Source: an uncultured Thermoleophilia bacterium
GTDB lineage: Bacteria; Actinomycetota; Thermoleophilia; UBA2241
Direction of reading: 5' to 3'
Assembly: GCA_963699725.1 (NCBI GenBank)
Contig: CAVOVA010000001.1
Span: 75,937-139,936 of the forward strand
DNA length: 64,000 nt
Part shown: positions 1,233 to 24,815 of the stretch, piece after piece
Layout: each line of letters starts with the position of its first letter
How positions within the stretch are numbered: position 1 is the stretch's first letter
Notes under the pieces: generated by a model
Told to the model about the DNA's origin: nothing
Seen by the model: the letters and a program-made list of their open reading frames with translations, nothing else
The model's database searches: none
Program-made: the position numbers and the translations under genes

Positions 1233-1266
1233 TGCTTCCCTTTCGTGACGGGCCCGGTGGCCGCCC

Positions 1267-3041: not shown

Positions 3042-3167
3042 GGGCGGACTCCTGTCGTAGGGACTGGGCCTCGTCTCATGACTCTCCAACACTGACGCGT
3101 GTCAGAGTCAAAGACAGGCCTTCCGGTCCGTGGAGTGCCGGGCCGGAGCCGGTTCCGGAGAGCCCCG

Positions 3168-6668: not shown

Positions 6669-6738
6669 CTCGATCGCTGTCCTTTCGCCGTCGCTGGGGC
6701 CGGGATGGAGTCGTGGTGGGGCCTGCAGAGCTGAGGGG

Positions 6739-7575
6739 CTACCCGGCGTTCCAGCCGAGGTAGGTCGAGAGCAGGGTCGCGGTGTGCTTCACCGCTTCGG
6801 CGCAGCGCGTGCGCTCCTCGGGGCCGAAGCGGCCGATGGGGGTGACCACGGAGATCGCCGCGACCACGTCGCCCACCTGGTCGCGGACCGGCGCGCCGAC
6901 GGCGCAGAGACTCGCGTACAGCCCTGCGTCGTCGTAGGCGACGTCGTCGCGGGCGACGCGGTCGAGCTCTTCCGCGAGCGCCTGCGGATCGGTCACCGTG
7001 TTCGGCGTGAGCTTCGGCAGGGGTCGCGCCAGCAGCTCGGCGCGTTCCTCCCCGGGCTTGAAGGCCGCGAAGATCTTGCCGTGGACGGAGGCAAGGTTGC
7101 CGATGATCCGCCCGGGCGCCGTGCGGCGCTGGAAGGGTCTGGTGGTGTCGATGCAATCCACGCAGACCGGCCGGTCGTCGACCTCGAGCGCCAGGGTGAC
7201 GGACTCGCCGGTCTCTTCGGCCAGGGCCTCGAGGAAGGGCCTGGCGGTCTCGACGAAGTCGGAGAACCCGTCCGACACGTACGCCAGCGCGAGCGCGGCC
7301 GGACCGACGTGGTACTTGTTGGTGACGCGGTCGCGGATGAGGAAGCTGGAGCCCTCGAGCGTGCGCACCATCCGGTAGGCCGTCATGCGCAGCAGGCCCG
7401 TCTGCTCGGCGATCTCGTCGATGGTCCATTCGCGGTGGTCGACGTCGAACAGGGAGAGCACTGAGAGGCCGCGCGCGAGCGCACGCACGGAGAGCGCATC
7501 GGAGCCGGCGGCCGGACCGGACGTCCTGAGCGGGGGTTTGGCGCGCTTCCCCCGTGTCGTGCCCGAAGCTCCCAT
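6739..7575 (-). CDS. IclR-family transcriptional regulator (IclR-1).
   Basis: MGASGTTRGKRAKPPL...ALSVRALARGLSVLSLF...IAEQTGLLRMTAYRMVRTLE... HTH plus effector domain. It lies 70 bp upstream of alpha1 on the same strand. The reading frame is embedded in a spurious 1140-aa antisense ORF in the track. Confidence 0.8.
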   Translation of the reverse strand: MGASGTTRGKRAKPPLRTSGPAAGSDALSVRALARGLSVLSLFDVDHREWTIDEIAEQTGLLRMTAYRMVRTLEGSSFLIRDRVTNKYHVGPAALALAYVSDGFSDFVETARPFLEALAEETGESVTLALEVDDRPVCVDCIDTTRPFQRRTAPGRIIGNLASVHGKIFAAFKPGEERAELLARPLPKLTPNTVTDPQALAEELDRVARDDVAYDDAGLYASLCAVGAPVRDQVGDVVAAISVVTPIGRFGPEERTRCAEAVKHTATLLSTYLGWNAG

Positions 7576-7628
7576 AAGACCCTTCCCGTCCGCGAGTCCT
7601 GCGTGCAACGCAGCATATCCTTGCATAG

Positions 7629-7681
7629 CGCTGATATGACGATGTACGATATCAGCGTTGCTACCAGACGATATCAGCGTT
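7629..7681. promoter_or_regulatory. Candidate operator in the IclR-1/alpha2 divergent intergenic region: inverted repeat CGCTGATAT-N11-ATATCAGCG plus a direct repeat of ACGATATCAGCGTT (7646-7659 and 7668-7681).
   Basis: Read directly from the sequence. The region is locally AT-richer (about 50% GC) than its surroundings. Confidence 0.45.
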
Positions 7682-7800
7682 TTGAGTGTTTGCAAGCGGA
7701 AAATGGGTCGATGATCGGCCATCGTCGCGGCCAGGTGGTGTGCGAACGGGGAGAAGCCGGGCGTCTCAGGGGATGGAGAGGACTCGTCGGAGGTAGAGGC

Positions 7801-10333: not shown

Positions 10334-11167
10334 ATGGCGCGACTGAGCCTTCTGATCGATGTGACCAGGTGCACCGGCTGCTACAACTGCTTGCTGGCGT
10401 GCCGTGACGAGCACTACGGCAACGACTACCCGGGCTACTCGGCCGCACAACCCCTGAACGACCAGTTCTGGATGCAGGTCAAGGAGATCGAGCGCGGCTC
10501 CTACCCGCGTCCCAAGCTCGACTACGTCGCCGTCCCGTGCCAGCACTGCGCGGACGCGCCGTGCATCGACGCCGCCACAGGCGAAGCCGTCTACCGGCGC
10601 GACGACGGCGTCGTGATCATCGACCCGGTGAAGGCCAAGGGCCAGCCGCAGATCGCGCAGGCCTGCCCGTACCGGGTCGTCTTCTGGAACGCGGACCTCG
10701 AGATCCCGCAGAAGTGCGGTATGTGCGCCCACCGGCTCGACGCCGGCGAGAAGCAGCCGCGCTGCTCCGAGTCGTGTCCCACCGGCGCCATGGTGTTCGG
10801 CGACCTCGACGACCCGCAGTCGGAGATCGCGCAGCGTGTCGCGGCCCTCGAGACCGAGGTGCTGCATCCCGAGTACGGTTGCTCGCCGCTGGTGCGCTAC
10901 CACGGTATCCCCAGGCGCTTCGTTGCCGGCGAGGTCGTCCTCGACGACGTCGCCGATGTCTGCGCCCGGGGGGTCAAGGTCGTGCTCGAGGGCGAGGGCG
11001 TGCGCGACGAGACCACCTCGGACGTCTTCGGCCAGTTCGAGTTCGAGGGCCTCGTCCATCGCGGCTCCTACACGATCTCGGTCGAGCACCCGGGCTACGT
11101 GGCGCGGCAGCTGGACGTGCGCACCGACACCGACGTGTACGTGGGCGAGGTGCGCCTCACGCGCTGA
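10334..11167 (+). CDS. Transhydroxylase small-subunit-like FeS protein (BthL-like) with C-terminal CarbopepD-regulatory-like domain, paralog 2.
   Basis: MARLSLLIDVTRCTGCYNCLLACRDEHYGNDYPGY...CQHCADAPC...CPYRVVFWN...CGMCAHRLD...VFGQFEFEGLVHRGSYTISVEHPGY. Starts 5 bp after the alpha2 stop. Confidence 0.9.
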   Translation: MARLSLLIDVTRCTGCYNCLLACRDEHYGNDYPGYSAAQPLNDQFWMQVKEIERGSYPRPKLDYVAVPCQHCADAPCIDAATGEAVYRRDDGVVIIDPVKAKGQPQIAQACPYRVVFWNADLEIPQKCGMCAHRLDAGEKQPRCSESCPTGAMVFGDLDDPQSEIAQRVAALETEVLHPEYGCSPLVRYHGIPRRFVAGEVVLDDVADVCARGVKVVLEGEGVRDETTSDVFGQFEFEGLVHRGSYTISVEHPGYVARQLDVRTDTDVYVGEVRLTR

Positions 11168-11457
11168 AGCAGCGTCGAAGGAGCCGGGCCCCGGCACCCT
11201 CCGCAGCGTGTGGGGCCGAGGGCGACGTGCCGGACTCGCGGAGCGTTCATCTGGACAAGAGCACGAACCTCGGCCAGGTCCTGCAGCCCGCGCCTGACGC
11301 AGCCGCGTCGAGAAGGCTCCTCGCAAGCGCTTCCCTCGCGAGCCGTTCGGGCGCCCGCCTTCTCCCGAGGGCGGGCGCCCATTCCCGCTTGCGCGTCCCG
11401 ATGGCCCGGCGCTTCCGCCGGCTCCCGCCGGGCCGATTGACCTGCCGCCGCACCCGA

Positions 11458-11498
11458 GATACGGTACCATTGTACGGATACAGCATGCCGTATGATGG
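11458..11498. promoter_or_regulatory. Candidate operator: GATACGG, TACGGATAC and CCGTATGATGG elements (11-mer at 11488-11498) upstream of IclR-2.
   Basis: Sequence motif shared with sites at 13396, 16138-16155 and 18805-18836. Confidence 0.4.
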
Positions 11499-11670
11499 AA
11501 CGCCAGCGAGTGATGGTGCAGCGTCCCGCGTGGTCGCCGAAGGTCACGGGGAAGCAGGAGACAGGCGCGCTACGGCGGCGCGCGATGGAGCGCACCAAGA
11601 CCACCCCGGCGGCTGGCTACCGTCTCGTGCAGGCGAAGCCCGCGCGGAGGGCGACGCACACCGAACGGCC

Positions 11671-12471
11671 ATGGCCGAGAAGGACCCGGAGATGCCACAA
11701 CGCCCTGACGACAACACTGATGCGCAGAAGGGCGGCATGCAGGTCATCACGAGGGCCGCGGCCATCCTCGAAGGGCTCGCGGAGTCACGCGGCGGCCAGA
11801 CGTTGGCGCAGCTCGCGTCCCGGACGGGTCTGCCCAAGACGACCGTGCACCGCATCTGCACCGCCCTGGAACAGGTCGGCTACGTGCGCGTCGACGAAGC
11901 GACCGGCCTGCGCGAGCTCGGCCGCGGGCTCCAGCGCCTGGCCGTCCTCGGCCGCCGCGATCTGCTCACCGTGCTGGAGCCGTATCTCGAGCGCCTGTCC
12001 CGGGACCTCAACGAGACGGTGGACCTGGCCGTGCTGGATGGCTCGCGCGTGCTGTTCCTGGCACAGCATCCGGCGCCGCACCGCGAGCTCATGGCGATCG
12101 CCAGGGTGGGTGCTCACTTTCCGGCCTACAGGCTGGCCAGTGGCAAAGTCCTCCTTGCCCAACTCTCGCCGGACGAGCTCCGCCGCCGTCTGCCGCGGAC
12201 GCTGGAGCCGACGGCCGAAGGCTCGCCCAGGAGTCGCGAGGAGCTGCTGCGCGAGCTCGAGGAGGTGCGCTTCACCGGCCTCGGCTACGAGCGTGAGGAG
12301 CTCCGGCACGGTATCTGCGCCATCGCCGTGGTTGTGACCGACGTCGACGGGCGCAGCGCGTCGATCGCGACGCCAATGCCGGCATCGCGCTTCTATCAGG
12401 ATCAGGATTCGGTGACGGCGAAGCTGCTGTCCCTGCGCGATGCGATCCAGCGGGATCTGGACGGCGTCTGA
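11671..12471 (+). CDS. IclR-family transcriptional regulator (IclR-2).
   Basis: MAEKDPEMPQ...MQVITRAAAILEGL...LASRTGLPKTTVHRICTALEQVGYV...NETVDLAVLDG...ARVGAHFPAY... ATG at 11671. An alternative ATG lies at 11737. Confidence 0.8.
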   Translation: MAEKDPEMPQRPDDNTDAQKGGMQVITRAAAILEGLAESRGGQTLAQLASRTGLPKTTVHRICTALEQVGYVRVDEATGLRELGRGLQRLAVLGRRDLLTVLEPYLERLSRDLNETVDLAVLDGSRVLFLAQHPAPHRELMAIARVGAHFPAYRLASGKVLLAQLSPDELRRRLPRTLEPTAEGSPRSREELLRELEEVRFTGLGYEREELRHGICAIAVVVTDVDGRSASIATPMPASRFYQDQDSVTAKLLSLRDAIQRDLDGV

Positions 12472-12543
12472 GCCGCCTTGCCTCGGACCCGGTCCGGCGC
12501 ATCTGATGCCGTGCGGGAGCGGGGCCAGAGACGAGGAGGGCAC

Positions 12544-13305
12544 ATGAACGTGTTCGACATCGCCGGACGGTGCGCCGTGGTCGTCGGCGGCGGCGGGCTC
12601 GGCGGGGAGATCGCCCGGGGGCTGGCCGACCACGGCGCTCACGTCGCCGTCGCCGACGTCGATGAGGAGCGTGCCGCCGCATCCGTCGCCGCTATCGCAG
12701 GTCAAGGGGTCGACACGCTCGGCCTCGCCATCGACGTGACCGACGAGCGTTCGGTGCGCCGCGCCGTCACCGACGTGCTCGCGACCTTCCCCAGGATCGA
12801 CATCCTGGTCAACGCTGCCGGGGTGACTGTGCGCAAGCGGGCGGAGGATCTCCCGGTGGACGACTGGCGGCGCGTCCTGGAGATCAACGCCACCGGCACC
12901 TTCGTCTGCTGCCAGGCCTTCGGCGCGGAGATGGCGCGTGGCGGTGGGGGCGCGATCGTCAATCTGTCCTCCGTGCGAGGGCGGTTCGGTGCGACCTTCG
13001 GGCAAGCGGAGTACTCGGCGAGCAAGGGCGCGGTCGACTCCCTGACACGCTCGCTCGCCGTGCAGTGGGCCGAGTTCGGTATCCGTGTGAACGCGGTCGC
13101 GCCGACCTTCGTCGAGACCGACCTCACGCGGGCCGTGCTCGCCGACGACGCCTTCGCCGCCGGCCTGCGCGCAAGCATTCCCATGGGGCGCTGGGCCGAG
13201 GCTGCCGACGTGGTCGGTCCCGTGCTCTTCCTCGTCTCGCCGGCGGCGGCGTTCGTCACCGGCCAGATCCTCTACGTGGACGGCGGTCTCACGGCGCGCG
13301 TCTGA
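12544..13305 (+). CDS. Short-chain dehydrogenase/reductase (SDR). Candidate phloroglucinol reductase or 3-hydroxy-5-oxohexanoate dehydrogenase.
   Basis: MNVFDIAGRCAVVVGGGGLGGEIARGLA... (TGxxxGxG Rossmann motif) ...NAAG...SSVRG...YSASKGAV (YxxxK)...VNAVAPTFVET. Pathway role is inferred from context only. Confidence 0.85.
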   Translation: MNVFDIAGRCAVVVGGGGLGGEIARGLADHGAHVAVADVDEERAAASVAAIAGQGVDTLGLAIDVTDERSVRRAVTDVLATFPRIDILVNAAGVTVRKRAEDLPVDDWRRVLEINATGTFVCCQAFGAEMARGGGGAIVNLSSVRGRFGATFGQAEYSASKGAVDSLTRSLAVQWAEFGIRVNAVAPTFVETDLTRAVLADDAFAAGLRASIPMGRWAEAADVVGPVLFLVSPAAAFVTGQILYVDGGLTARV

Positions 13306-13395
13306 GCGTTCGCGGACCTGGCGGCAGGGCGCTCGGGGGATGCTTGACCTGCTCCCGGCCATCTGCAAGAGTGTTCGCATCATGGACTAGCAGTT

Positions 13396-13406
13396 CCGTA
13401 TCGTGG
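13396..13406 (+). promoter_or_regulatory. CCGTATCGTGG motif upstream of SDR-2.
   Basis: Exact 11-mer. Also present at 18805 (+) and 16145-16155 (-). Confidence 0.4.
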
Positions 13407-13556
13407 GCATTCCGCCCTTGAGCGGACGGCCGGATGGGACCCTGGTGACCGGGTCGCCGGGCTGTGGGTGAGCACGCTCGTCACAGCCGCATCGCGCGAA
13501 AGCCGCTCCCCGGTCCGTCGCCCGTGAACCGGACACGACGCGAGAGGAGACGTGCG

Positions 13557-14357
13557 ATGGCTGAGCGTGAGATCTGGAGCGTCGACAAGATCCGCGGCCT
13601 GTTCGATCTGACCGGCAAGGTCGCGATCGTGACCGGCGGGTCAGGGGCCTTCGGCCACGATGCCGCCAAGGCGATGGCCGCCTTCGGCGCGAGTGTGGTC
13701 GTCACGAGCCGGCGCGTCGAGAACGTCGAGTCGGCCGCGGCCGACATCGCCGGGGCGACCGGCGCGCGGGTGCTGCCCGTCCCGTGCGATGCGGTCGACC
13801 CGGAGAGCGTCGAGGCCATGGTGCAGAAGACCGTCGACGAGTTCGGCAAGGTCGACATCCTCGTCACTGCCGCCGGCCAGGCCAACCGCTTCGCCGCCGA
13901 GGAGTTTCCGCTCGACGAGTGGCAGAAGGTCATGGACTCGCTCGTCAAGGGTACCTATGTCGTCTGCCAGGCTGCCGGCAAACGCATGATCGCCCAGGGC
14001 GGCGGCAAGATCATCACCGTCGGGTCCGTGCGCGGCGAGCTCGGGCATCCCGGAGGGTATTCCGCGTACGGCACCGCCAAGGGCGCGGTACACCTGCTCA
14101 CCAAGCAGCTCGCCGCTGAGTGGGCCAAGTACCATATCAACGTGAACTCCATCGCCCCCTGCATCTTCTGGACCCCGCTCACACAGCAGGTCCTCGACGA
14201 CCCCGAGCTCTACAAGATCTTCATGCAGCGCATCCCGTGGGGCCGCGCCGCGGATCCTCAGGACTTCATGGGCGCGACGGTGTACCTCGCCTCGGCGGCG
14301 TCCGACTTCGTCACCGGGGACATCCTGATGGTCGACGGCGGCAGCACCGCCGCCTGA
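13557..14357 (+). CDS. Short-chain dehydrogenase/reductase (SDR) no. 2. Candidate for the second reductive/oxidative step of the phloroglucinol pathway.
   Basis: MAEREIWSVDKIRGLFDLTGKVAIVTGGSGAFGHDAAKA...YSAYGTAKGAV...VNSIAPCIFWTP. Shine-Dalgarno GAGAGGAGA. Confidence 0.85.
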   Translation: MAEREIWSVDKIRGLFDLTGKVAIVTGGSGAFGHDAAKAMAAFGASVVVTSRRVENVESAAADIAGATGARVLPVPCDAVDPESVEAMVQKTVDEFGKVDILVTAAGQANRFAAEEFPLDEWQKVMDSLVKGTYVVCQAAGKRMIAQGGGKIITVGSVRGELGHPGGYSAYGTAKGAVHLLTKQLAAEWAKYHINVNSIAPCIFWTPLTQQVLDDPELYKIFMQRIPWGRAADPQDFMGATVYLASAASDFVTGDILMVDGGSTAA

Positions 14358-14380
14358 CTCTCCGGCTGAAGGGGGCCGCA

Positions 14381-15331
14381 GTGAGCACCACGGGCGCTGA
14401 GTGCGTCGCCGTCGTCGGGGGCGGCATGATGGGCGTCGGCGTGGCCCAGGTCTTCGCCGCCGCCGGACATGAGGTCGCGCTCCAGGATGTGTCTCAGGAG
14501 GCCCTCGAGCGCGCCCCGGGCACCATCTCGGCGAACCTGGCCTTCCTCGCAGAGCACGGTCTCTTCGCGGCCGACGGCGTCGACGACGCCGTCGGCCGCG
14601 TGCGCACCACCGCGGAACTCACGGAGGCGGCCGCCGGCGCCGACGTCGTCGTCGAGTGCGTGTTCGAGGATCTCGCCCTCAAGCAGGAGGTCTTCGAGCG
14701 TCTCGACGCCGTGTGCCCGGTCGAGACGATCCTGTGCACCAATACATCGGTGATGAGCATCACCGAGATCGGCGCCCGCGCCGTGAACAGGCAGCGGGTC
14801 GTCGGCACGCACTTCTGGAACCCGCCGTACCTGATCCCGCTGGTCGAAGTCGTGCGCACCGAGCACGTCGATCCAGCGGTGGTCGAACGCACCATGGACC
14901 TCCTGCGACGCGTGGGCAAACACCCGATCGACTGCAAGAAGGACGTTCCCGGCTTCGTCGCCAATCGCCTGCAGCATGCCCTCTGGCGGGAGGCCATCTC
15001 GATCGTCGAGCGAGGCATCGCCGACGCCGAGACGGTGGACGAGAGCATTCGCTACGGTCCCGGTCTGCGCCTGCCGATCCTGGCGCCGATGGAGAACGCG
15101 GACATGGTGGGTCTCGACCTCACGCTGGCGATCCACGACTACATCCTGCCCCACCTCGAGGCTTCGGGCGAGCCGTCGCCGCTCTTGCGCGCGAAGGTCG
15201 AGGCCGGGGATCTCGGATTCAAGAGCGGCAAGGGGTTCGCCGAGTGGACGCCCGAGTCGGCTGAGGCGTCGCGGAGGCGTTTGGCGGCCTACCTGGTGCA
15301 CGTGCTGGGCGATCCCGAGCGGGGGTTCTGA
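14381..15331 (+). CDS. 3-hydroxyacyl-CoA (3-hydroxybutyryl-CoA) dehydrogenase, NAD-binding.
   Basis: VSTTGAECVAVVGGGMMGVGVAQVFAAAGHEVALQD...NTSVMSITEI...GTHFWNPPYLIPLVEVV...GFVANRL. GTG start with Shine-Dalgarno GAAGGGGG. Confidence 0.8.
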   Translation: MSTTGAECVAVVGGGMMGVGVAQVFAAAGHEVALQDVSQEALERAPGTISANLAFLAEHGLFAADGVDDAVGRVRTTAELTEAAAGADVVVECVFEDLALKQEVFERLDAVCPVETILCTNTSVMSITEIGARAVNRQRVVGTHFWNPPYLIPLVEVVRTEHVDPAVVERTMDLLRRVGKHPIDCKKDVPGFVANRLQHALWREAISIVERGIADAETVDESIRYGPGLRLPILAPMENADMVGLDLTLAIHDYILPHLEASGEPSPLLRAKVEAGDLGFKSGKGFAEWTPESAEASRRRLAAYLVHVLGDPERGF

Positions 15332-15353
15332 GACGGCCGAGCGGCGCGACGGA

Positions 15354-16082
15354 GTGCAGGTCCTCTCGCGCGCGGCGCTGCTGCTGCGGGCGCTCTCCGT
15401 CACGCCTGAGGGCCTGACTCCAATCGCGCTCGCCGACCAGGTCGGCCTGCCGCGCTCCACCTGCTACCGCATCGTCGGCGCGCTCTGCCAGGAGGGGCTC
15501 ATGCGCCTCTCGCCCTCGGGCAAGCTGCACATCGGCGCCGGTCTCATCAGCCTCGCCGCCGCCGGCCGGCGCGATCTGCGGCACGAGTCGGCTCCGCTCC
15601 TCGAGCGCCTTTCACTCGAGTTGCACGAGACCGTGGAGCTCGTCGTGCTCGACGGCGACGAGGCGCTGTTCACCGACCAGTACGTCCCGCAACGCTCGCT
15701 GCGCGTGGTGGCGGAGGTGGGCGACCGCTTTCCGCTCTACTGCACCGCGTGCGGCAAAGCGCTGCTGGCCGAGCTGCCGGCCCCGGAGGCGGCGCGTCTG
15801 GTACCGCCGCGTCTCGAGCCGCTCACCCGCCACACCATCGTCGACCGGGACGCGCTCTTCCGGGAGGTCGAGGAGGCGCGGACCACCGGCGTGGCCTACG
15901 ACCACCAGGAACACACGCTCGGCGTGTCCGCGGTGGGCGCCGCCCTCAAGGATGCCGGCGGCGCCATGGCCGCCATCACCGTGGCCATGCCGGCCGCTCG
16001 CCTCGACGGCCACGAGGAGCGCATCTCCGCCGCGCTCCTCCGTACTCGCGACGACATCCAGCAGGCCATCAACGCGAGCTGA
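15354..16082 (+). CDS. IclR-family transcriptional regulator (IclR-3).
   Basis: VQVLSRAALLLRALSVTPEGLTPIALADQVGLPRSTCYRIVGALCQEGLM...HETVELVVLDG...VGDRFPLY... Paralog of IclR-2 and IclR-4. The start codon (GTG at 15354) is uncertain. Confidence 0.7.
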   Translation: MQVLSRAALLLRALSVTPEGLTPIALADQVGLPRSTCYRIVGALCQEGLMRLSPSGKLHIGAGLISLAAAGRRDLRHESAPLLERLSLELHETVELVVLDGDEALFTDQYVPQRSLRVVAEVGDRFPLYCTACGKALLAELPAPEAARLVPPRLEPLTRHTIVDRDALFREVEEARTTGVAYDHQEHTLGVSAVGAALKDAGGAMAAITVAMPAARLDGHEERISAALLRTRDDIQQAINAS

Positions 16083-16137
16083 CCGGCGGCCGCCTCCAAC
16101 GCCGCATCCGTATTGACAGCGGATTCGGGACGTCTTA

Positions 16138-16155
16138 GCGTATCCACGATACGGC
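16138..16155. promoter_or_regulatory. Palindromic operator candidate CGTATC-CAC-GATACG; its minus strand reads CCGTATCGTGGATACG. Upstream of the cyclase gene.
   Basis: Perfect inverted repeat that contains the shared 11-mer. Flanking CCGTAT (16108) and ATGCGGATAG (16170) half-sites. Confidence 0.45.
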
Positions 16156-16281
16156 ACTTTGTGTCCGAGATGCGGATAGTCGAGCATCGGGAGCACGGCC
16201 GCCACATCATCGTCGGCGGGCAGTCCGGGTGCGCGAGAGCCCGTCTGCCGTGACTGTAACGAGACCGAGGAGAGTAGGCCC

Positions 16282-17241
16282 ATGGGCAAGAAGGTATTCG
16301 TTGACCTCACACACCCGTTCAGCGCGGAGATCCCCCGGTGGCCGTACTTCGTGAAGCCGGTCATCGACTCCATGCACACCCTGGCGAAGGGCGGTGTCCT
16401 CACGCAACGCATCGACTGCGTGCAGCACACCGGCACCCACGCCGACGCTCCTCGTCACGTCATGGAGCGCGAGTTCAACGGCAAACGTGCCCGCTACACG
16501 CACGAGATGCCGGTGGACGCCTACACCGGCGACGCCGTCTGCCTCGACATCCAGATCGAGAAGTGGGGCCTCATCCTGCCCGCGCATATCGAGGACGCCT
16601 GCGCGCGCGCCGGCATCAAGCCTGAGGAGCTCAAGGGCATGGTCGTGTGCCTCAACACCGGCATGCACCGCAAGTTCGACGACTCCATGGACTACTACCA
16701 GTACTCGTGCGGCACCGGCGTCGAGGCCGGCAGGTGGTTCGTCGAAAAGCAGGTCAAGGTCGTGGCCATGGACATGCAGGCCCTCGACCATCCGCTCCAC
16801 ACCGCGATGGGCAAGAACGGCCCGCCGCAGATGAACCTCCCGGGCGCCTCCGGCCGTCCGATCACCGAGGAGTACATCGAGAAGTACGGCATCGAGGCCT
16901 ACGCCGAGTTCGAGAAGGCCGTCTACATCGAGGTGCACGGCCAGGACGCCTACGACGCCAAGTTCGGCGACCTCGAGGCGATCGGCTGCGAGGGGACCTG
17001 GGAGCCCTGCCACAAGCAGATGCTCGGCCACGGCATCGTCGGCGTCGAGAACCTCGGCGGCGACCTGGACAAGGTCAGGGGCAAGCGGTTCCGCTTCTTC
17101 TGCTTCCCGATCCGCTGGTACATGGGCGACGGCTCCATGGTGCGCTGCGCCGCCGAGATCGACGAGGACGACCTGAACGACGTGCCGGATCGCACGTACA
17201 CTTACGCCGGTACCGGCTACGGTCCCGGAGCCGGCTACTGA
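16282..17241 (+). CDS. Cyclase-family (kynurenine-formamidase-like, PF04199) metal-dependent hydrolase. Candidate dihydrophloroglucinol cyclohydrolase.
   Basis: MGKKVFVDLTHPFSAEIPRWPY...IDCVQHTGTHADAPRH (HxGTHxDxPxH metal motif)... The function is assigned by family plus context. Confidence 0.75.
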   Translation: MGKKVFVDLTHPFSAEIPRWPYFVKPVIDSMHTLAKGGVLTQRIDCVQHTGTHADAPRHVMEREFNGKRARYTHEMPVDAYTGDAVCLDIQIEKWGLILPAHIEDACARAGIKPEELKGMVVCLNTGMHRKFDDSMDYYQYSCGTGVEAGRWFVEKQVKVVAMDMQALDHPLHTAMGKNGPPQMNLPGASGRPITEEYIEKYGIEAYAEFEKAVYIEVHGQDAYDAKFGDLEAIGCEGTWEPCHKQMLGHGIVGVENLGGDLDKVRGKRFRFFCFPIRWYMGDGSMVRCAAEIDEDDLNDVPDRTYTYAGTGYGPGAGY

Positions 17242-17371
17242 TCCGCCTGTCGCCCCCGGGGGCCGACGGCGTGGCGCCCGCCGGCGTTCGCCACGGGACG
17301 GCACGGTGTGGCGCTTGACGGCGTTCGTAGTCATTCGGAGAAGCCGAACACGGCTCGAGAAGGAGTGAGGC

Positions 17372-17722
17372 ATGGAGGTCACGAGGTACGACGAGGCCCC
17401 GAGCTACGAGGCCCCCGGACATTTCGACGTGTACGGCCTGCGCCTGCAGGGGTTCGAGGTCAGCAAAACCCGCAACTTCTGGATGAGCATCTCCCACTTC
17501 CTGCCCGGGGGCGGCTGCGAGTACGTCGCCACCCCGATCGAGAAGGTCTACTTCGTGCTCGAGGGTGAAGTCACCGTCAAGACGGAGGAGGGCGAGGTCA
17601 TCCTCAAGAAGTGGGACTCCATCTACCTGGCGCCGGACGAGGCCCGCTCGATCCTGAACCACACCAACTCGCCGGCGACGATGCTCGTCGCAATCCCCTA
17701 TCCGGAGCCCCGCGAGTTCTGA
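17372..17722 (+). CDS. Cupin-domain protein.
   Basis: 116 aa: ...NFWMSISHFLPGGGCEYVATPIEKVYFVLEGEVTV... Two-motif cupin pattern. Confidence 0.6.
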   Translation: MEVTRYDEAPSYEAPGHFDVYGLRLQGFEVSKTRNFWMSISHFLPGGGCEYVATPIEKVYFVLEGEVTVKTEEGEVILKKWDSIYLAPDEARSILNHTNSPATMLVAIPYPEPREF

Positions 17723-17902
17723 GCCGGGACTGCGGGAGCGTGTCCCGGGTTCTCCGGCGGGGACGACGCGCGCACGCGGACGGTACGGGGGCGGCGACTG
17801 AGCAGCCGACCGTCCCCGCCCGTCCGGGCACGGACCTCCGCCCTCGCCTGTGCACCCGCGCGCCAGACGATTCCCGACCCCACGACCTCCGAGGAGGCCA
17901 TC

Positions 17903-18733
17903 ATGCCCAGACCCATCATCACCGCGGCGCTCACGGGTCCCGTGGCGACCAAGGCCGACAATGCCGGCATCCCCGGGAACGTGGCGGAGATAGCCGCCGA
18001 CGCCAGGGCCTGTCACGAGGCCGGAGCTGCAGTCATCCACATCCACCTCCGCGACGATCAGGGCAACATGACGGCCGATCTCGACGTCGCACGACGTACG
18101 GTCGAGGCCGTCCGCGAGGTCTGTCCGGGCATCACGCAGCTCTCCACCGGGGGGCTGCAGTTCACCTACGAAGAGCGTATGCGCCTGGTCGAGGCGAAGC
18201 CCGCGATGGCCACACTCAACCCTTGCACGATGACCTTCGCCACCGCGGAGTTCCGCAACCCGCCCAAGCAGATGATGGAGCTGGCGGCCCGGATGATGGA
18301 GCTCGGCGTCAAGCCCGAGGTCGAGATCTACGACACCGGCCACCTCGAGATGATGCTCTACCTGCTACACAAGGAACTCCTCGTCCGGCCGCTGCAGGTC
18401 TCGTTCGTCATGGGCGTCCGGGGGGGCATGAAGGGCGACCCGGGACTGCTCGCGTATCTCGTGCGCGAGTTGCCCGAGGGAACCAGCTGGCAGGTCATCG
18501 GCGTGGCCAAGGCCAACCTCCCGATGACGGCGGTCGGTCTGGCCATGGGAGGGAACGCGCGCACGGGCATGGAGGACACCATCACGCTCGACAAGGGTGT
18601 GCCCGCGGACTCGAACCGGCAGCTCGTCGAGCGCCTCGTCGGCATCGCCCAGTCGATGCAACTGCAGCCCGCGTCCGTCGCCGACGTCGTGGAGCGGCTC
18701 CAGCTCCATCCGGAGCTCGTCAACGGAGCCTGA
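17903..18733 (+). CDS. Beta-keto-acid cleavage enzyme (BKACE / 3-keto-5-aminohexanoate cleavage family, DUF849). Candidate triacetate acetoacetate-lyase.
   Basis: MPRPIITAALTGPVATKADNAGIPGNVAEIAADARACHEAGAAVIHIHLRDDQGNMT...QLSTGG...EERM. Canonical BKACE N-terminal blocks. Confidence 0.8.
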   Translation: MPRPIITAALTGPVATKADNAGIPGNVAEIAADARACHEAGAAVIHIHLRDDQGNMTADLDVARRTVEAVREVCPGITQLSTGGLQFTYEERMRLVEAKPAMATLNPCTMTFATAEFRNPPKQMMELAARMMELGVKPEVEIYDTGHLEMMLYLLHKELLVRPLQVSFVMGVRGGMKGDPGLLAYLVRELPEGTSWQVIGVAKANLPMTAVGLAMGGNARTGMEDTITLDKGVPADSNRQLVERLVGIAQSMQLQPASVADVVERLQLHPELVNGA

Positions 18734-18804
18734 GGGGCGCGCGACTCGACTGTACCGCGAGGCGGAACCGTTGCTTGACAGTCTGGAGCCCGGCTATATG
18801 ATGC

Positions 18805-18836
18805 CCGTATCGTGGGAGGGAACGTCCGTATGGTGG
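18805..18836 (+). promoter_or_regulatory. Two tandem copies of the shared motif (CCGTATCGTGG at 18805-18815 and CCGTATGGTGG at 18826-18836) upstream of the ABC substrate-binding protein gene.
   Basis: Read directly from the sequence. About 190-220 bp upstream of the ATG at 19024. Confidence 0.45.
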
Positions 18837-19023
18837 ATGGCCATGGAGGTGGTATCGCACCGTTGACTAGGCTCTGAGAGGTGCGCGCGTGGTGTTCTGA
18901 GGCAGTCGGTACGGGAGCCCGTTCGCAGCACCGGTATTCGAGAAGGCCATCGGGGGGGTCCCGGCCCGCCGCGTCGCCCGGCTCGGGCGACGGACGGGGG
19001 CGGGACCACGTTAAGGAGGCGGT

Positions 19024-20394
19024 ATGAGTTCAGAGGACACAACCCGCAAGACGACCGAGAAGGGCATCAAGACGCCGATCTCTCGTCGTGACTTCCTCAA
19101 GACGGCCGGCGCCACCGGCCTCGCTCTGGGCGCCACCGGTGGGCTCGGGGGCGTGCTCGCCGCGTGCGGGGGCGAGAGCAGCGACACTGCCAGTGAGGGC
19201 GAAGGCCGCGAGATCAAGATCGGCTTCGTATCGCCGCTCACCGGTCCGTTGGCGGCCTTCGGCGAGGCGGACCAGTTCTGCGTCGACCAGTGGAGCGAAG
19301 CCGTCGCCGACGGCCTCGCCACTGCCGACGGCGCGGTACACCCGATCAACTTCATCATCAAGGACTCGCAGTCAGACTCGAACCGCGCCGCGACTGTGGC
19401 CGGCGACCTCATCAACAACGACGGCGTGGACATCATGATGGTCGCCTCCACGCCGGACACGGTGCCGCCGGTGGCGGACCAGTGCGAGGCGTTCGGCGTC
19501 CCGTGCGTGTCCAACGACTGCCCGTGGCAGGCCTACTTCTTCGGCCGCGGTGGCGATCCTGAGAACCCCTTCAAGTGGACCTACCACTCCTTCTGGGGTT
19601 CCGAGTCGGCGGCCGCCGTCTTCATGTCCATGTGGGACAGCTTCCCGACCAACAAGAAGATCGGCGTGATGTGGCCGAACGACGCCGACGGCAACGCGTG
19701 GGCCGACACCGAGACGGGCATGCCCACCTTCTGGGGCCCCGCCGGCTACAAGTTCACCGACCCCGGCCGGTATCAGAACGGCACCGAGGACTTCACCTCG
19801 CAGATCTCCAAGTTCAAGGCCGCAGGCGTTGACATCCTCAACGGCGTCATGATCCCGCCCGACTTCACGAACTTCTGGAAGCAGGCCTATCAGCAGGGCC
19901 TCAAGCCCCCGTTGGTCACCATCGCGAAGGCCCTCCTCTTCCCGTCGGCTCTCGAGGCTGTCGGCGACATCGGCTATGGCCTCACCACCGAGGTGTGGTG
20001 GACGCCGCAGCATCCGTTCACCTCGTCACTCACCGGCCAGACCAGCCAGGAGATCGGCGACGCCTACGAGTCGACGACCGGAAAGCAGTGGACGCAGCCG
20101 ATCATGCACTACGCCGTGTTCGAGGTCGTGGCCGACGCCATCAAGCGCACCGAGAACATCGACGACAAAGAGCAGATCATCGCCGCCGTCCAGGCCACCG
20201 ACATCGAGACCATCAGCGGCCCGATCCATTGGAACGGAAGCGACCTGAACCCGGTCCCGAACGTCTGCATCACGCCGCTCGTGGGCGGCCAGTGGGTCCA
20301 GGGAGAGAACTACCCCTTCGACCTCAAGATCGTCGAGAACTCGATCGCCCCGGAGGTGCCCACCAACGCCGAGATCGCGCAGATGGAGTACTGA
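19024..20394 (+). CDS. ABC transporter substrate-binding lipoprotein, LivK/branched-chain-amino-acid-binding family (Peripla_BP_6).
   Basis: RRDFLKTAGATGLALGATGGLGGVLAACGG (Tat-like RR signal plus lipobox LAAC), then a type-I periplasmic binding-protein fold. Shine-Dalgarno AAGGAGG. Confidence 0.8.
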   Translation: MSSEDTTRKTTEKGIKTPISRRDFLKTAGATGLALGATGGLGGVLAACGGESSDTASEGEGREIKIGFVSPLTGPLAAFGEADQFCVDQWSEAVADGLATADGAVHPINFIIKDSQSDSNRAATVAGDLINNDGVDIMMVASTPDTVPPVADQCEAFGVPCVSNDCPWQAYFFGRGGDPENPFKWTYHSFWGSESAAAVFMSMWDSFPTNKKIGVMWPNDADGNAWADTETGMPTFWGPAGYKFTDPGRYQNGTEDFTSQISKFKAAGVDILNGVMIPPDFTNFWKQAYQQGLKPPLVTIAKALLFPSALEAVGDIGYGLTTEVWWTPQHPFTSSLTGQTSQEIGDAYESTTGKQWTQPIMHYAVFEVVADAIKRTENIDDKEQIIAAVQATDIETISGPIHWNGSDLNPVPNVCITPLVGGQWVQGENYPFDLKIVENSIAPEVPTNAEIAQMEY

Positions 20395-20470
20395 GTGTGG
20401 CCGACCCGACCCCGCTGCCCCGTCCTGCTCCGCCGCGTCACCACGAGGTAGAAGCGATGCAGGATGGTAG

Positions 20471-21202
20471 ATGCTCATGACCGTGGTGCTCCAGACCACC
20501 GGTCTCAACAAGTCCTTCGGTGGCGTGAAGGTCATCGACGACTTGAGCGTGCAACTCCGCGAAGGCGAAGCACTGGGCATCGTCGGGCCGAACGGCGCCG
20601 GGAAGACGACGTTCTTCAACCTCGTCACCGGCGTGTATCGGCCCGACTCGGGTCGGGTCGAGTTCAAGGGCAAGGACGTGACGCACGTGTCGCGGCAAGA
20701 CATCTGCCGGCTCGGTCTGGGTCGTACCTACCAGATCCCGAAGCCGTTCTCGGACATGAGCGTGTTCGAGAACGTGCTGGTGTGCGCCGCGTATGCCCGC
20801 GGCGCCGGCGAGCGCGCCAGCTACCGGCGCTGCGTCGAGGTGCTCGAGCAGACGCGGCTCGCCCACAAGGCCAATCATCAGGCGGGCGCCCTGCCCCTGC
20901 TCGACCGCAAGCGGCTCGAGCTGGCCAGGGCGCTCGCCGGCGATCCCACCGTCTTGCTACTGGACGAGATCGCCGGCGGCCTCACCGAGACCGAGGTCGA
21001 GGTCCTCATCGGCACCATCAAGGAGCTGCGCCAGGGCGGCATCTCGATCGTCTGGATCGAGCACATCGTCCACGCGCTGCTCGCGGTCGTCGACCGCATC
21101 TGCGCCATCAGCTTCGGCGCCCTGCTCATCGAGGGCGACCCCAACGAGGTCATGTGCAGCGACGAAGTGCAGGCCTGCTACATGGGGGGGACGCCGATAT
21201 GA
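20471..21202 (+). CDS. ABC transporter ATP-binding protein (LivG-like).
   Basis: GPNGAGKTT Walker A, LSGGQ-like signature and Walker B LLLDE. Confidence 0.85.
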   Translation: MLMTVVLQTTGLNKSFGGVKVIDDLSVQLREGEALGIVGPNGAGKTTFFNLVTGVYRPDSGRVEFKGKDVTHVSRQDICRLGLGRTYQIPKPFSDMSVFENVLVCAAYARGAGERASYRRCVEVLEQTRLAHKANHQAGALPLLDRKRLELARALAGDPTVLLLDEIAGGLTETEVEVLIGTIKELRQGGISIVWIEHIVHALLAVVDRICAISFGALLIEGDPNEVMCSDEVQACYMGGTPI

Positions 21203-21897
21203 GCATCCTGGAAGTCAAGGACGTCGACGTCTTCTACGGCGACTTCCAGGCCCTGTTCTCGGTCGGCTTCTCCGTCGAGGAAGGACAGACGTTCGCGTTC
21301 ATCGGCGCCAACGGCGGCGGCAAGTCCACGCTGCTCAAGACGCTCGCCGGCCTGCTCAGGCCGACGTCGGGCGAGGTGCTGTTCCAGGGCGAGGCCATCA
21401 ACAACGTTCCGGCCCACACGCGTGTGGGCATGGGCATCGCCCTCGTGCCCGAGGGACGTCGCGTGTTCCCGAGCCTCACGGTCCACGAGAACCTGCTCAT
21501 CGGCGCCTACGGGGGCCGCAAGGGCGAGTGGAACGTCGAGTCGGTGCTGGAGCTCTTCCCGTTGCTCGAGCCTCTCATGAAGCGTCAGGCCTCCAGTCTG
21601 TCGGGCGGCGAGCAGCAAGCCCTGGCCATCGGGCGGGCGCTCATGTCCAACCCGCACCTCATCCTCCTGGACGAGGTCTCGCTCGGTCTCGCGCCAGTCG
21701 TCATCAAGCGCATCTACGAGGCGATGGGCCACCTGGTGCAGAAGGGCACGACCATCCTCGTGGTCGAGCAGGACGTGCAGCACGTGCTCACGGTGGCCGA
21801 CTACGTCGCCTGCTTCCTCGAGGGCAGGATCTCGCTGGAGGGCCAGCCCGGCGACCTGAGTTCCGAGCAAATCACCGCGGCCTACTTCGGGATGTGA
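21199..21897 (+). CDS. ABC transporter ATP-binding protein (LivF-like).
   Basis: MSILEVKDVDVFYG...GANGGGKSTLL...LSGGEQQALAIGRAL...ILLDEVSLGL. ATGA overlap with the upstream gene. Hidden inside a longer spurious ORF in the track. Confidence 0.85.
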   Translation: MSILEVKDVDVFYGDFQALFSVGFSVEEGQTFAFIGANGGGKSTLLKTLAGLLRPTSGEVLFQGEAINNVPAHTRVGMGIALVPEGRRVFPSLTVHENLLIGAYGGRKGEWNVESVLELFPLLEPLMKRQASSLSGGEQQALAIGRALMSNPHLILLDEVSLGLAPVVIKRIYEAMGHLVQKGTTILVVEQDVQHVLTVADYVACFLEGRISLEGQPGDLSSEQITAAYFGM

Positions 21898-21901
21898 TCG
21901 C

Positions 21902-22774
21902 ATGGATTGGGTGAATGTCGCCGTACAGGGGGTCCTCCTGGGCGGGCTGTTCGCACTGTTCGCGACCGGGCTCGCCCTCGTCTTCGGCGTGATGCGACTG
22001 GTCAACCTCGCGCACGGCGACCTCGGCATCCTCGCCGCGTTCGTCGCCCTCTTCCTGCTGGACAGCTTCAACCTGGGCGTGTTCTGGGCGTCCCTCGCGT
22101 CAATCGCCATCATGTTCTGCGTGGGCTACGTGCTGCAGCGCGGGCTGCTCAACTACACCATCGGCACCGACGACACGCGGCCGATCCTGGTCACGTTCGG
22201 TCTGTCGATCATCATCCAGAACGCGCTCATCATGCAGTTCTCGGCCGACTCACAGGGCCTTGACGCGGGAGCCATCGAGAACGCCAGCGTCCGCATCACG
22301 GACCAGCTCGCGGTCGGCTGGTATCCGCTGATCGTGTTCGTCATCGCCATCGCGGTCATCGCGGCGCTCCAGCTGTTCCTCAACAGGACGACCCTCGGCC
22401 GTGCCTTCCGGGCCACCTCCGACGATCAGGAAGCGGCCGAGCTGATGGGCATCAACAACCGCCACATCTACAGCCTGGCCATGGCCATCGCCCTGGCCAT
22501 CGTCGCCCTCGCCGGGATCCTGCTCGCGGTCCGCACGACGTTCGACCCGAGTCAGGGCCCGTTCCGCCTCATCTTCGCCTTCGAGGCGGTCATCATGGGC
22601 GGCATGGGCTCCATCTGGGGCACGCTCATCGGCGGCATCATCCTCGGCGTCTCGCAGACCCTGGGCGCCCAGGCCTTCGGCGCCGGCTGGGGCATCTTCG
22701 TGGGGCACATCGTGTTCCTGGCGGTCCTGGCCTTCAAGCCGAGCGGCTTCTTCGCCAAGACGGTGACGGCATGA
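21902..22774 (+). CDS. Branched-chain-amino-acid-type ABC permease (LivH-like).
   Basis: Polytopic. ...NLAHGDLGILAAFVAL... Typical LivH blocks. Confidence 0.8.
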   Translation: MDWVNVAVQGVLLGGLFALFATGLALVFGVMRLVNLAHGDLGILAAFVALFLLDSFNLGVFWASLASIAIMFCVGYVLQRGLLNYTIGTDDTRPILVTFGLSIIIQNALIMQFSADSQGLDAGAIENASVRITDQLAVGWYPLIVFVIAIAVIAALQLFLNRTTLGRAFRATSDDQEAAELMGINNRHIYSLAMAIALAIVALAGILLAVRTTFDPSQGPFRLIFAFEAVIMGGMGSIWGTLIGGIILGVSQTLGAQAFGAGWGIFVGHIVFLAVLAFKPSGFFAKTVTA

Positions 22775-23862
22775 GCACGCCCGTGGAGTCCATCCCCCCC
22801 AAGGGCATCCCGGCGTTCCGCATCGCGCGGTCGGCGCCGATGCACCGCTACGTGCTCATCGTGTTCCTGGCGGTCGTCGCCGTGCTCGCCAGTGTGCCCT
22901 TCTGGGCGCAGACCGGCACGACCCGGACCTTGGTGACCTTCTTCACCCTGCTGGCCCTCGCCCAGATGTGGAACCTGCTCGGCGGCTACGCCGGCCTCAT
23001 CTCCGTCGGCCAGCAGGCCTACGTCGGCCTCGGCGCCTACGGCGTGTGGCTGATCGCCGACATCCTGGGGCTCCACCCCTTCATCGCGGTACCACTCGCC
23101 GGCGTTGTGGCGGCGGTCGTCGCGCTGCCGGTCGGCCCGCTGCTGTTCCGCCTCAAGGGCGGCTACTTCGCCATCGGCACGTGGGTCGTGGCTGAGGTCG
23201 TGCGGCTGATCGTCGCCAACATCCAGGCGACGGGTGGTGGCTCCGGCAAGACCATCCTGTCGGCCGCCCGCCTGCCCATCGACACGCGCATCCAGGGCAC
23301 GTACTACATGGGGCTGGCCGTCGCCGTCGGCTCCATCCTCCTGGTGTACTTCCTCCTGCGCTCGCGCGTAGGCCTGGCCCTCACGGCCATCCGGGACAAC
23401 GACCTGGCCGCGCAGAGCTCCGGCGTGAACGTGTTTCGATCCAAGCTGCTCGTCTACGTGATCGCGGCCTTCGGCTGCGGCGCCATGGGCGCCGTCGTCG
23501 CCCTGAACCTGCTCCGCATCCAGCCGACGGCCGCGTTCAGCATCAACTGGACGGCGTACGCGCTGTTCATCGTCGTCATCGGCGGTTTCGGCACGATCGA
23601 GGGTCCGATCATCGGCTCCGTCATCTACTTCGCGCTCCTGCAGAACCTGAGTCAGTACGGCACGTCGTACCTGCTGCTGCTGGGTGTGATCGCCGTGATC
23701 ATGGCGGCGAAAGCGCCGCGCGGCATCTGGGGCTTCGTCGCCAAGCGCTGGAACATCCACCTGTTCCCGGTCAGGCGCCGGCTCGAGCTGGAGGCGCCAC
23801 CCCCGGGTGACGACCAGGGGCCGGCGGACGCGCCGGATCCCCCTCTCGCGGAGCCCGCCTGA
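22771..23862 (+). CDS. Branched-chain-amino-acid-type ABC permease (LivM-like).
   Basis: Polytopic. ...LLGGYAGLISVGQQAYVGLGAY... 4-bp overlap with livH-like. Confidence 0.8.
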   Translation: MSTPVESIPPKGIPAFRIARSAPMHRYVLIVFLAVVAVLASVPFWAQTGTTRTLVTFFTLLALAQMWNLLGGYAGLISVGQQAYVGLGAYGVWLIADILGLHPFIAVPLAGVVAAVVALPVGPLLFRLKGGYFAIGTWVVAEVVRLIVANIQATGGGSGKTILSAARLPIDTRIQGTYYMGLAVAVGSILLVYFLLRSRVGLALTAIRDNDLAAQSSGVNVFRSKLLVYVIAAFGCGAMGAVVALNLLRIQPTAAFSINWTAYALFIVVIGGFGTIEGPIIGSVIYFALLQNLSQYGTSYLLLLGVIAVIMAAKAPRGIWGFVAKRWNIHLFPVRRRLELEAPPPGDDQGPADAPDPPLAEPA

Positions 23863-24035: not shown

Positions 24036-24815
24036 GTGATCGAGACCGATCGCGACGTGGAGAAGGAATCTCGCAACGGCGTCCAGGTGCTCGCCCGGGC
24101 CGCCACGATCCTGCGGCTGCTGGCGGCCGACTCGTCGGGAGGATTGACCTTCAGCGAGCTGGTCGCACGGTCCGGTCTGCCGCGGACCACGGTCCACCGC
24201 ATCCGCGGCGCCCTCGAGCACGAGGACTTCATCTACACCGACGCCGCCACCGGGCGTCTTCACCTGGGGCCCGGCATCATGCGCCTCGCCATGGCCAAGC
24301 GCGATCTGCCGACGGTCGTGCGGCCGTACCTCGAGCAGTTGGCGCGCGAGCTCAACGAGACCGTCGATCTCGGAGTGCTGGACGGCATGCACGTGCTCTT
24401 CATCGCCCAGCATCCGGCGCCCCAGCGCTCGCTCATGGTGGTCTCGCGCGTCGGCGCCCGCTTCCCGGCGTACTGCACCGCCAACGGCAAGGCGCTGCTC
24501 GCCCAGCTCCCCCAGGACGAGATCAAGCGCCGGCTTCCCCAGCGGCTGGAGACGCCGGCGCAGCACACGCCCATCAGCCGCAAGGGGCTCCTGGCCGAGA
24601 TGGAGGAGGTGCGCGACAGCGGGCTCGCCTACGACTGCGAGGAGCATCGCACCGGCATCTGCAGCGTCGGCGTGGCCATCACCGACATCGATGGCAGCTC
24701 CGCATCCATCTCCGTACCGATGCCGGCGGCCCGCTTCTACGAGGACCCGGATACCGTCGCCGCGGCGCTGCTGCGCGTCCGCGACGAGGTCCAGATCGCC
24801 CTCCACAACGGCTGA
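24036..24815 (+). CDS. IclR-family transcriptional regulator (IclR-4).
   Basis: GTG start. ...VARSGLPRTTVHRIRGALEHEDFIY...NETVDLGVLDGMHVLFIAQHPAPQRSL...VGARFPAY. Close paralog of IclR-2. Confidence 0.8.
   Translation: MIETDRDVEKESRNGVQVLARAATILRLLAADSSGGLTFSELVARSGLPRTTVHRIRGALEHEDFIYTDAATGRLHLGPGIMRLAMAKRDLPTVVRPYLEQLARELNETVDLGVLDGMHVLFIAQHPAPQRSLMVVSRVGARFPAYCTANGKALLAQLPQDEIKRRLPQRLETPAQHTPISRKGLLAEMEEVRDSGLAYDCEEHRTGICSVGVAITDIDGSSASISVPMPAARFYEDPDTVAAALLRVRDEVQIALHNG

Follow-up and report, generated by a model that had tools for sequence, protein, structure and literature searches.

In this study, we followed up a recurring 11-mer, CCGTATCGTGG, in a 64 kb stretch of DNA (hereafter the window; 68% G+C) from the metagenome-assembled genome (MAG) of an uncultured Thermoleophilia bacterium (Actinomycetota), and relate it to the catabolic genes and IclR-type regulators that surround it. 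Four families of the anaerobic phloroglucinol pathway are co-located here (SDR, cyclase, 3HCDH-type dehydrogenase and BKACE), and by analogy the locus would encode an anaerobic-type phloroglucinol pathway together with a candidate uptake system. Pathways of this type have been known only since 2023, and their regulation is uncharacterised (PMC10470551). Our analysis indicates that the 11-mer is in all likelihood the core of an IclR group-1 operator box at four promoters, where it would be bound by a repressor tetramer. The reading builds on the sites themselves, their pairing and geometry, their conservation, their co-occurrence with regulator genes and the class of the motif, each of which is observed.

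The genes concerned lie on the plus strand, behind promoters that we call P1 to P4. The P1 operon consists of IclR-2 (11671..12471) and SDR-1 (12478-13305). The P2 operon (13464..16082) runs from the phloroglucinol-reductase-like SDR-2 (13464-14357) through HBD (14354-15331), a member of the 3-hydroxyacyl-CoA-dehydrogenase family, to IclR-3 (~15330-16082) at its end; the two enzymes were assigned by Pfam, with their roles taken by analogy (PMC10470551). The P3 operon (16282..18733) holds a cyclase-family protein resembling dihydrophloroglucinol cyclohydrolase (DPGC; 16282-17241), a cupin (17372-17722) and a triacetate acetoacetate-lyase-like BKACE protein (17903-18733), all three recognised by Pfam. 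The P4 operon (19024..23862), delineated by Pfam and conserved synteny, encodes an ABC transporter with a Peripla_BP_6 substrate-binding protein carrying a twin-arginine (TAT) signal (19024-20394), two ABC ATPases (20471-21897) and two permeases (21902-23862). It is followed by IclR-4 (24036..24815; Pfam), after which come housekeeping genes. IclR-2, IclR-3 and IclR-4 each have HTH_IclR (PF09339) and IclR_C (PF01614) domains above the Pfam cut-off, and their recognition helices align as GLPKTTVHRIC, GLPRSTCYRIV and GLPRTTVHRIR, respectively. All three score below every NCBIfam equivalog cut-off (BhcR, PcaR, IclR, KdgR, AllR), and therefore belong to no named orthologous group.

The gene content resembles that of the anaerobic phloroglucinol cluster of Clostridium scatologenes, which comprises PGR, DPGC, TfD and TAL with an MFS transporter and an uncharacterised regulator, and for which no operator has been described (PMC10470551). 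An SDR protein, a PF04199 cyclase, a 3HCDH-type dehydrogenase and a BKACE protein are common to both, and the cyclase of the window is 83-84% identical to clostridial homologues. In contrast to the clostridial cluster, the genes of the window are arranged in separately controlled units with three IclR paralogues and an ABC transporter, and pyrogallol-hydroxytransferase-like genes lie adjacent.

The exact 11-mer occurs at 13396-13406 (+), 16144-16154 (-) and 18805-18815 (+), and there is no other exact copy within the window. The variants CCGTATGGTGG and CCGTATGATGG are found at 18826-18836 (+) and 11488-11498 (+), and two further related sites stand on the minus strand at P1 (CCGTATCTCGG, 11454-11464; CCGTACAATGG, 11467-11477). 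Every one of these sites is intergenic. The degenerate pattern CCGTATSGTGG has 4 matches in the window against 0.03 expected from dinucleotide-preserving shuffles (n = 100), none of which attained 4. The initial annotation, which had listed the three exact copies and both near-variants and had judged their repetition very unlikely by chance, was thus correct on these points, save that its minus-strand copy (16145-16155) was one base off. It had further placed that copy within a perfect palindrome, CGTATC-N3-GATACG, upstream of the cyclase. The palindrome does exist (CGTATCCACGATACG, 16139-16153), but it is confined to the cyclase promoter and is not the operator unit: a matching right arm is missing from the other promoters, its centre (16146) lies 3 bp off the dyad of the box (16149), and its left arm also serves as the -10 hexamer of P3. 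Rejected as a general site, it may at most supply an extra half-site at P3. Matches to CCGTATC at 27301 and 49513 were also dismissed, as they adjoin housekeeping genes and have no partner box. Among the papers of the searchable library, the motif strings turned up solely in unrelated primers, and none had the motif in a relevant context.

The operator unit is not the bare 11-mer but a pair of gTCCG-N5-YGGA boxes placed 21 bp apart. Each box is a 13-17 bp pseudo-palindrome (gTCCG-yATsg-YGGAn), of which the 11-mer forms the core. A position weight matrix (PWM) built from 57 unique boxes, picked by a loose pattern, gave the consensus g/t-T-C-C-G-Y-A-T-S-G-Y-G-G-A-m (flanking T 0.67, flanking A 0.72), with A5 and T6 as the most informative positions. 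Degenerate partner boxes, missed earlier, lie exactly 21 bp off at 13375 (TCGCATCATGG), 16165 (CCGCATCTCGG, minus strand) and 11467 (CCGTACAATGG, minus strand). Single matches to the loose pattern are at chance level in the window (22 versus 19.9 expected); 4 pairs at 21 bp were seen for an expectation of 0.007. The four pairs reach PWM scores of 38.7, 37.0, 35.8 and 27.2, the next best in the window being 11.0. When the window was scanned with the PWM at spacings of 11-44 bp, no pairs emerged except at 21 bp, save for an extra box at P1, and this pair scan placed no boxes upstream of IclR-4, upstream of the two hydroxytransferase-like genes or elsewhere in the window.

All four promoters follow a common layout, in which a TTGACM hexamer, a 16-18 bp spacer and a TANNNT-type -10 hexamer are followed by the two boxes. 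Counted from the first base of the -35 hexamer, the offset is 30-31 bp to the start of the proximal box and 51-52 bp to that of the distal box; the pair therefore spans approximately -6 to +27 with respect to the predicted start site. P1 (11437..11498, +), upstream of IclR-2 and SDR-1, has the hexamers TTGACC (11437-11442) and TACGGT (11460-11465), boxes at 11467-11477 (-) and 11488-11498 (+), and the extra overlapping box at 11454-11464 (-). It carries the weakest pair (PWM 10.4 and 16.8), kept only in the closest relative (L004, 537/558). P2 (13344..13406, +), upstream of SDR-2, HBD and IclR-3, combines TTGACC (13344-13349) with the -10-like AAGAGT (13367-13372), which in most relatives reads TAGTGT. 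Its boxes, at 13375-13385 and 13396-13406 (both +), are kept as a pair in 15 loci with identities of 0.94 and 0.97; in most relatives the second box is CCGCATCGTGG, and position 4 of the motif is therefore Y. P3 (16113..16175, +), upstream of cyclase, cupin and BKACE, has TTGACA (16113-16118) and TAGCGT (16136-16141), with both boxes on the minus strand (16144-16154 and 16165-16175). Thirteen loci keep this pair, with identities of 0.99 and 0.84 for the two boxes, and its second box in relatives is GTCCG-N5-CGGAC. P4 (18775..18836, +), upstream of the gene for the ABC binding protein, pairs TTGACA (18775-18780) with TATGAT (18797-18802) across 16 bp, matching the consensus at 11 of 12 positions in a promoter scan. 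Its boxes, 18805-18815 and 18826-18836 (both +), are kept in 18 loci with identities of 1.00 and 0.93, the most invariant pair of the four.

To place the sites in an evolutionary context, related loci were gathered by a scan for the cyclase, with one genome per species, which yielded 80 loci whose cyclases are 83-99% identical to that of the window (97-99% in several Thermoleophilia MAGs); besides the window, ~20 kb were scanned per related locus. Seventeen of the 80, all from Thermoleophilia or unclassified Actinomycetota, share the gene order of the window (IclR-2, SDR-1, SDR-2, HBD, IclR-3, cyclase, cupin, BKACE, ABC transporter, IclR-4), at protein identities down to 62-75%. Wherever the contigs of these relatives span the region, box pairs stand at the orthologous promoters. 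Geometry was checked in 19 related loci (17 genome loci and two metagenome contigs), and pairs were seen in 5 further metagenome contigs. In each of the 53 pairs from the 19 loci, the proximal box is preceded by TTGAC at a distance of 29-34 bp (mode 30-31), and the box spacing, 21 bp at the four promoters of the window, is 20-22 bp in the related loci. Alignments show that only the -35 and -10 hexamers and the boxes are kept amid diverged intergenic DNA of variable length, mean pairwise identity being 0.84-1.00 for the boxes, 0.60-0.74 for the 10-bp spacer between them and 0.37-0.47 for the flanks. As a control, the intergenic region between the permease gene PERM2 and IclR-4 has no conserved promoter or box.

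Across the 80 loci, box pairs co-occur strictly with orthologues of IclR-2, IclR-3 and IclR-4, and no such pair was found in the ~62 cyclase loci that have none of these orthologues. Box orientation flips while position and spacing stay fixed, being inverted at P3 and mixed at P1, at the extra site of L003, at P3 of L013 and at P2 of L044 and L047; this fits a symmetric DNA-binding dimer rather than an RNA or sigma-factor element. Run against metagenomes, the pattern CCGYATSNYGG-N10-CCGYATSNYGG proved unfit as a negative control. Among the at least 120 matching stretches listed, four held the phloroglucinol locus (L086, L105, L110, L176); the remainder could be put down to chance or to repeats of 21 bp, coding or in tandem, and the matches listed added no member to the regulon.

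In some relatives, additional pairs are present. In a sister species (L003, 1818-1849) and a metagenome contig (L206, 10714-10746), a pair comes right after a TAGGAT -10 hexamer in front of pyrogallol-hydroxytransferase-like genes that have an IclR-2-type regulator gene next to them, a place where the window has none; in these two the regulon would reach the presumed phloroglucinol-supplying step. In another lineage, whose IclR-4 is 62-65% identical, an extra pair (L201, 16455-16488; L203, 16496-16528) is flanked by a transketolase/creatininase/AP_endonuc_2/ADH/cupin operon on one side and by the gene of an MFS transporter on the other, and a strong single box is found near 18906-18930. The regulon may be larger in this lineage.

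In line with the initial proposal that the motif serves as regulon operator for the local IclR paralogues, the boxes fall into a known motif class. Suvorova & Gelfand (2021; PMC8222616) give the IclR group-1 consensus GKTYCRYW3-4RYGRAMC with the subtypes TGT-11-ACA and GTT-11-AAC, and the classical form GTNCG-N5-6-CGNAC for PcaR, PcaU, PobR, CatR, GenR and HmgR. Our boxes fit the group-1 consensus as stated there with one deviation, the third central base being S instead of W. They share the odd-length pseudo-palindrome and the TCCG/CGGA-type arms, as in the distal P3 box of relatives, TGTCCGCnATGCGGACA, as well as the position at promoters of catabolic operons beside regulator genes. They differ from the published group-1 sites in that their centre is A-T-S rather than W3 and that several are strongly asymmetric, for example CCGTATCGTGGGAG. 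The same survey describes tandem sites at 18-22 nt (mainly 19-21) in 94 IclR orthologous groups and ascribes them to tetramers whose two dimers occupy the same face of the helix, a range that includes our spacing of 21 bp. Neither this regulator group nor Thermoleophilia nor a phloroglucinol pathway was found in the parts of PMC8222616 that were consulted.

IclR-2 and IclR-4 share the recognition helix TTVHRI, from which that of IclR-3 (RSTCYRI) differs, and in the alignment the helix is invariant among the orthologues of each paralogue. Several loci have no IclR-3 gene yet keep their pairs (P2 and P4 in L044 and L047; P3 and P4 in L110, L201 and L203), and L205, with only an IclR-4-like gene within 20 kb, has both the P3 and the P4 pair. 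Because loci without the gene keep the pairs, IclR-3 is dispensable and, judging from gene content, is not required. IclR-4 is present in every sufficiently covered locus with box pairs. In distant lineages with an IclR-4 that is 62-67% identical, the P3 and P4 pairs are kept and LP[RK]TTVHRI is invariant, and homologues down to 57% identity retain this sequence. The loci lacking IclR-3, the L205 locus and the invariant helix therefore favour IclR-4. Most likely, then, IclR-4 is the best candidate for the binding protein, and IclR-2, having the same helix, probably binds the same boxes too. Of the three binders that the initial annotation had suggested, IclR-2 and IclR-4 are thus the favoured candidates, whereas IclR-3 is not needed; its view of the motif as a shared operator gains computational support from conservation, co-occurrence and motif class, and its inclusion of the ABC transporter in the regulon agrees with the near-invariance of the P4 pair.

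The solved structure closest to IclR-4 is that of TtgV (2xrn/2xro; E 4.8e-37, residues 16-253). TtgV of Pseudomonas putida (PDB 2XRN/2XRO) is a tetrameric repressor on the ttgGHI operator, where it occupies two adjacent sites over the promoter, excludes RNA polymerase and is released by aromatic effectors. Its DNA-contact positions are kept or conservatively replaced in IclR-4 (QV..R in helix 1; GLPRTTVHRI versus GLPRSTVQRI in TtgV), although TtgV controls an efflux pump and IclR-4 sits at a catabolic locus. The case for IclR-4 as a putative TtgV-like tetramer draws on this similarity to 2xrn/2xro and on the two-site geometry. Use of more than one repeat is also a feature of IclR regulators of aromatic catabolism, namely the three-repeat sites of PcaU and PobR and the dimer of dimers of PcaR, and their extra external repeat is comparable to the third P1 box (11454) and to the extended palindrome at P3.

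From these elements a mechanism can be proposed. An IclR-type tetramer, built as a dimer of dimers, would place one dimer on each box and on the same face of the DNA, the box centres being separated by 21 bp, or two helical turns. Sitting over approximately -6 to +27 at P1-P4, it would block open-complex formation or promoter escape, and a pathway-related small molecule, be it phloroglucinol, a precursor (pyrogallol, gallate) or an intermediate, would free the repressor. The regulon in the window would then consist of four units, IclR-2/SDR-1, SDR-2/HBD/IclR-3, cyclase/cupin/BKACE and the Peripla_BP_6 ABC transporter. IclR-2 and IclR-3 would be feedback-controlled because they lie inside regulated operons, and IclR-4, whose upstream region has no box and is not conserved, may be expressed from its own unconserved promoter or by read-through from P4.

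Several points weigh against this reading. Binding and promoters are predicted from sequence alone in an uncultured MAG, the repressor role, oligomeric state and inducer being predicted steps as well, and the sigma-70-type hexamers and start sites derive from consensus only; the -10 hexamer of P2 in the window, AAGAGT, is a poor one. The scans covered the 64 kb of the window and, for each related locus, ~20 kb rather than whole genomes. Genomes without IclR-3 at the locus may carry the gene at another place. PWM scores at the core positions are partly circular because the sites were chosen with the loose pattern; the selection made no use of the flanking T and A, of the spacing or of the distance to the -35 hexamer. 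Published residue-base correlations do not separate the paralogues (R/K28, T/S29, H/Y32). Finally, a strong lone box (TCCGCATCACGGA, PWM 18.5) lies at 22290-22302 inside the first permease gene; it has no partner 21 bp off, is shared among relatives by the closest one alone (L004), and probably arose by chance.

A division of labour, in which no single repressor is shared and each IclR paralogue serves its own promoter or promoters, would accommodate part of these data. IclR-3, for example, could act on the adjacent cyclase promoter, which lies directly downstream of it in close relatives, with the variants CCGTAT/CCGCAT and CGTGG/CTCGG/CATGG setting specificity. The three paralogues do lie inside or beside the regulated operons, the IclR-3 helix is distinct and invariant, and the box variants are promoter-specific and conserved. 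Against this, P3 pairs occur in L110, L201, L203 and L205, and P2 and P4 pairs in L044 and L047, at loci without IclR-3; the exact CCGTATCGTGG is common to P2, P3 and P4 in the window, and IclR-2 and IclR-4 have the same helix. On balance we consider a division of labour rather unlikely. More speculative still, and improbable in our view, is that the three or four IclR paralogues converge on one operator type, through mixed tetramers or competition, each sensing a different polyphenol-derived signal (pyrogallol/gallate, phloroglucinol, a ring-cleavage intermediate). Promoters would then integrate these signals combinatorially, and promoter-specific box variants would set a hierarchy of de-repression.

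The sign of regulation also deserves consideration, as many IclR regulators of aromatic pathways are activators and PcaR activates as a dimer of dimers over the -35/-10 region. PcaU, PobR and PcaR, which mainly activate, bind over or upstream of -35/-10, whereas the pairs described here lie at -10 to approximately +27, downstream of good -35 hexamers; unlike the arrangement in those three systems, this position suggests repression. The near-consensus P4 promoter should need no activation, and TtgV, the closest structural relative, is a repressor. Activation by an IclR protein is, consequently, quite unlikely.

Since IclR binding is derived from sequence and ~20 kb per genome were inspected, a regulator of another family, encoded elsewhere, might in principle own the boxes, the linkage to IclR genes being incidental. 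The match to the group-1 consensus and to the tandem spacing typical of IclR proteins (PMC8222616), the strict co-occurrence with IclR-2/3/4 orthologues over 80 loci and a recognition helix that is invariant wherever boxes are kept make this very improbable. That the boxes are leftovers of a dispersed repeat or promoter duplication, or act at the RNA level in 5' leaders, is scarcely credible even though they lie at or past the inferred start sites, are at least partly transcribed and recur at four promoters alike in layout: only boxes and hexamers are kept between species amid flanks of 37-47% identity, copies elsewhere in the window are single matches at chance level with no further pairs, relatives have copies only at orthologous promoters within the ~20 kb scanned per locus, the inverted or mixed orientations (P3; P1, L003, P3 of L013, P2 of L044) are unfit for a strand-specific signal, and there is no Rfam match in 11000-19200 (E up to 1). 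The preferred reading thus remains an IclR-type repressor on paired boxes.

The surroundings of the locus offer further observations. Pyrogallol-hydroxytransferase-like large subunits are encoded at 4041-6788 (-) and ~7802-10329 (+), with a small subunit at 10334-11167, as found by Pfam scans and a tblastn check of the locus. Upstream of the locus (1-3101, minus strand) there are also genes for another molybdopterin oxidoreductase, for a membrane subunit of the NrfD-like type and for a 4Fe-4S subunit; with the two large subunits included, the molybdoenzymes beside the phloroglucinol genes form an unusually rich set. A divergent fourth regulator, IclR-1 (~7575-6739, minus strand), is 28% identical to IclR-4 and has the helix LRMTAYRMV. 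The intergenic region between IclR-1 and the hydroxytransferase-like gene (7576-7801; ATG at 7802) has a separate repeat set, CGCTGATAT-N11-ATATCAGCG-N13-ATATCAGCG, at 7629-7637, 7649-7657 and 7671-7679, within which the 14-mer ACGATATCAGCGTT recurs at 22-bp spacing; these repeats are probably IclR-1's own three-box operator. The ~215 nt leader of the binding-protein gene (18900-19026 in the window; orthologues L001-L047) has as conserved blocks an ACGAACAGCCGTTCG hairpin, the sequence AGAAGGCCATCGGGGGGGTCCC and, just 5' of the Shine-Dalgarno sequence, a long hairpin (GGUCCC...GGGACC), with some compensatory changes (18 of 37 predicted pairs). Its GCCAUC may pair with the GGAGGC ribosome-binding site, and the leader, which matches nothing in Rfam, could serve to control translation.

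Loci of other types carry palindromes of their own. In a second group of Actinomycetota (L016, L052, L059, L061, L071 and others), with the order BKACE, SDR, HBD, cyclase and no IclR-2/3/4, a conserved palindrome of another, operator-like kind, (C)GCAT-NNN-GGAAT-N3-ATTCC-NNN-ATGCG, lies ~200-250 bp upstream of BKACE, ahead of the extended -10 element TGGTGTAGAGT. The P2 of L044 and L047 resembles the type of this group, which suggests mosaic loci. Loci of 42-48% G+C from gut and other metagenomes (L090, L102, L120, L128, L149, L175, L183, L184) contain arrays of TTCCGTATCACGGAA, a perfect palindrome with 21-bp spacing and up to three copies in a row, which corresponds to an IclR-like WTT-11-AAW unit; the stretches fetched for these loci show no IclR gene.

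An IclR tetramer on tandem boxes is a textbook mechanism, and the value of our findings lies in annotation and testability rather than in a new principle. The pair of repressor and operator could become a biosensor for phloroglucinol-type compounds. Given its conserved P4 pair, the ABC transporter is therefore nominated as a polyphenol/phloroglucinol uptake system. For the anaerobic-type phloroglucinol pathway in uncultured Thermoleophilia of soil and sediment, this provides a testable regulatory model, with an operator, candidate repressors and a co-regulated ABC transporter.

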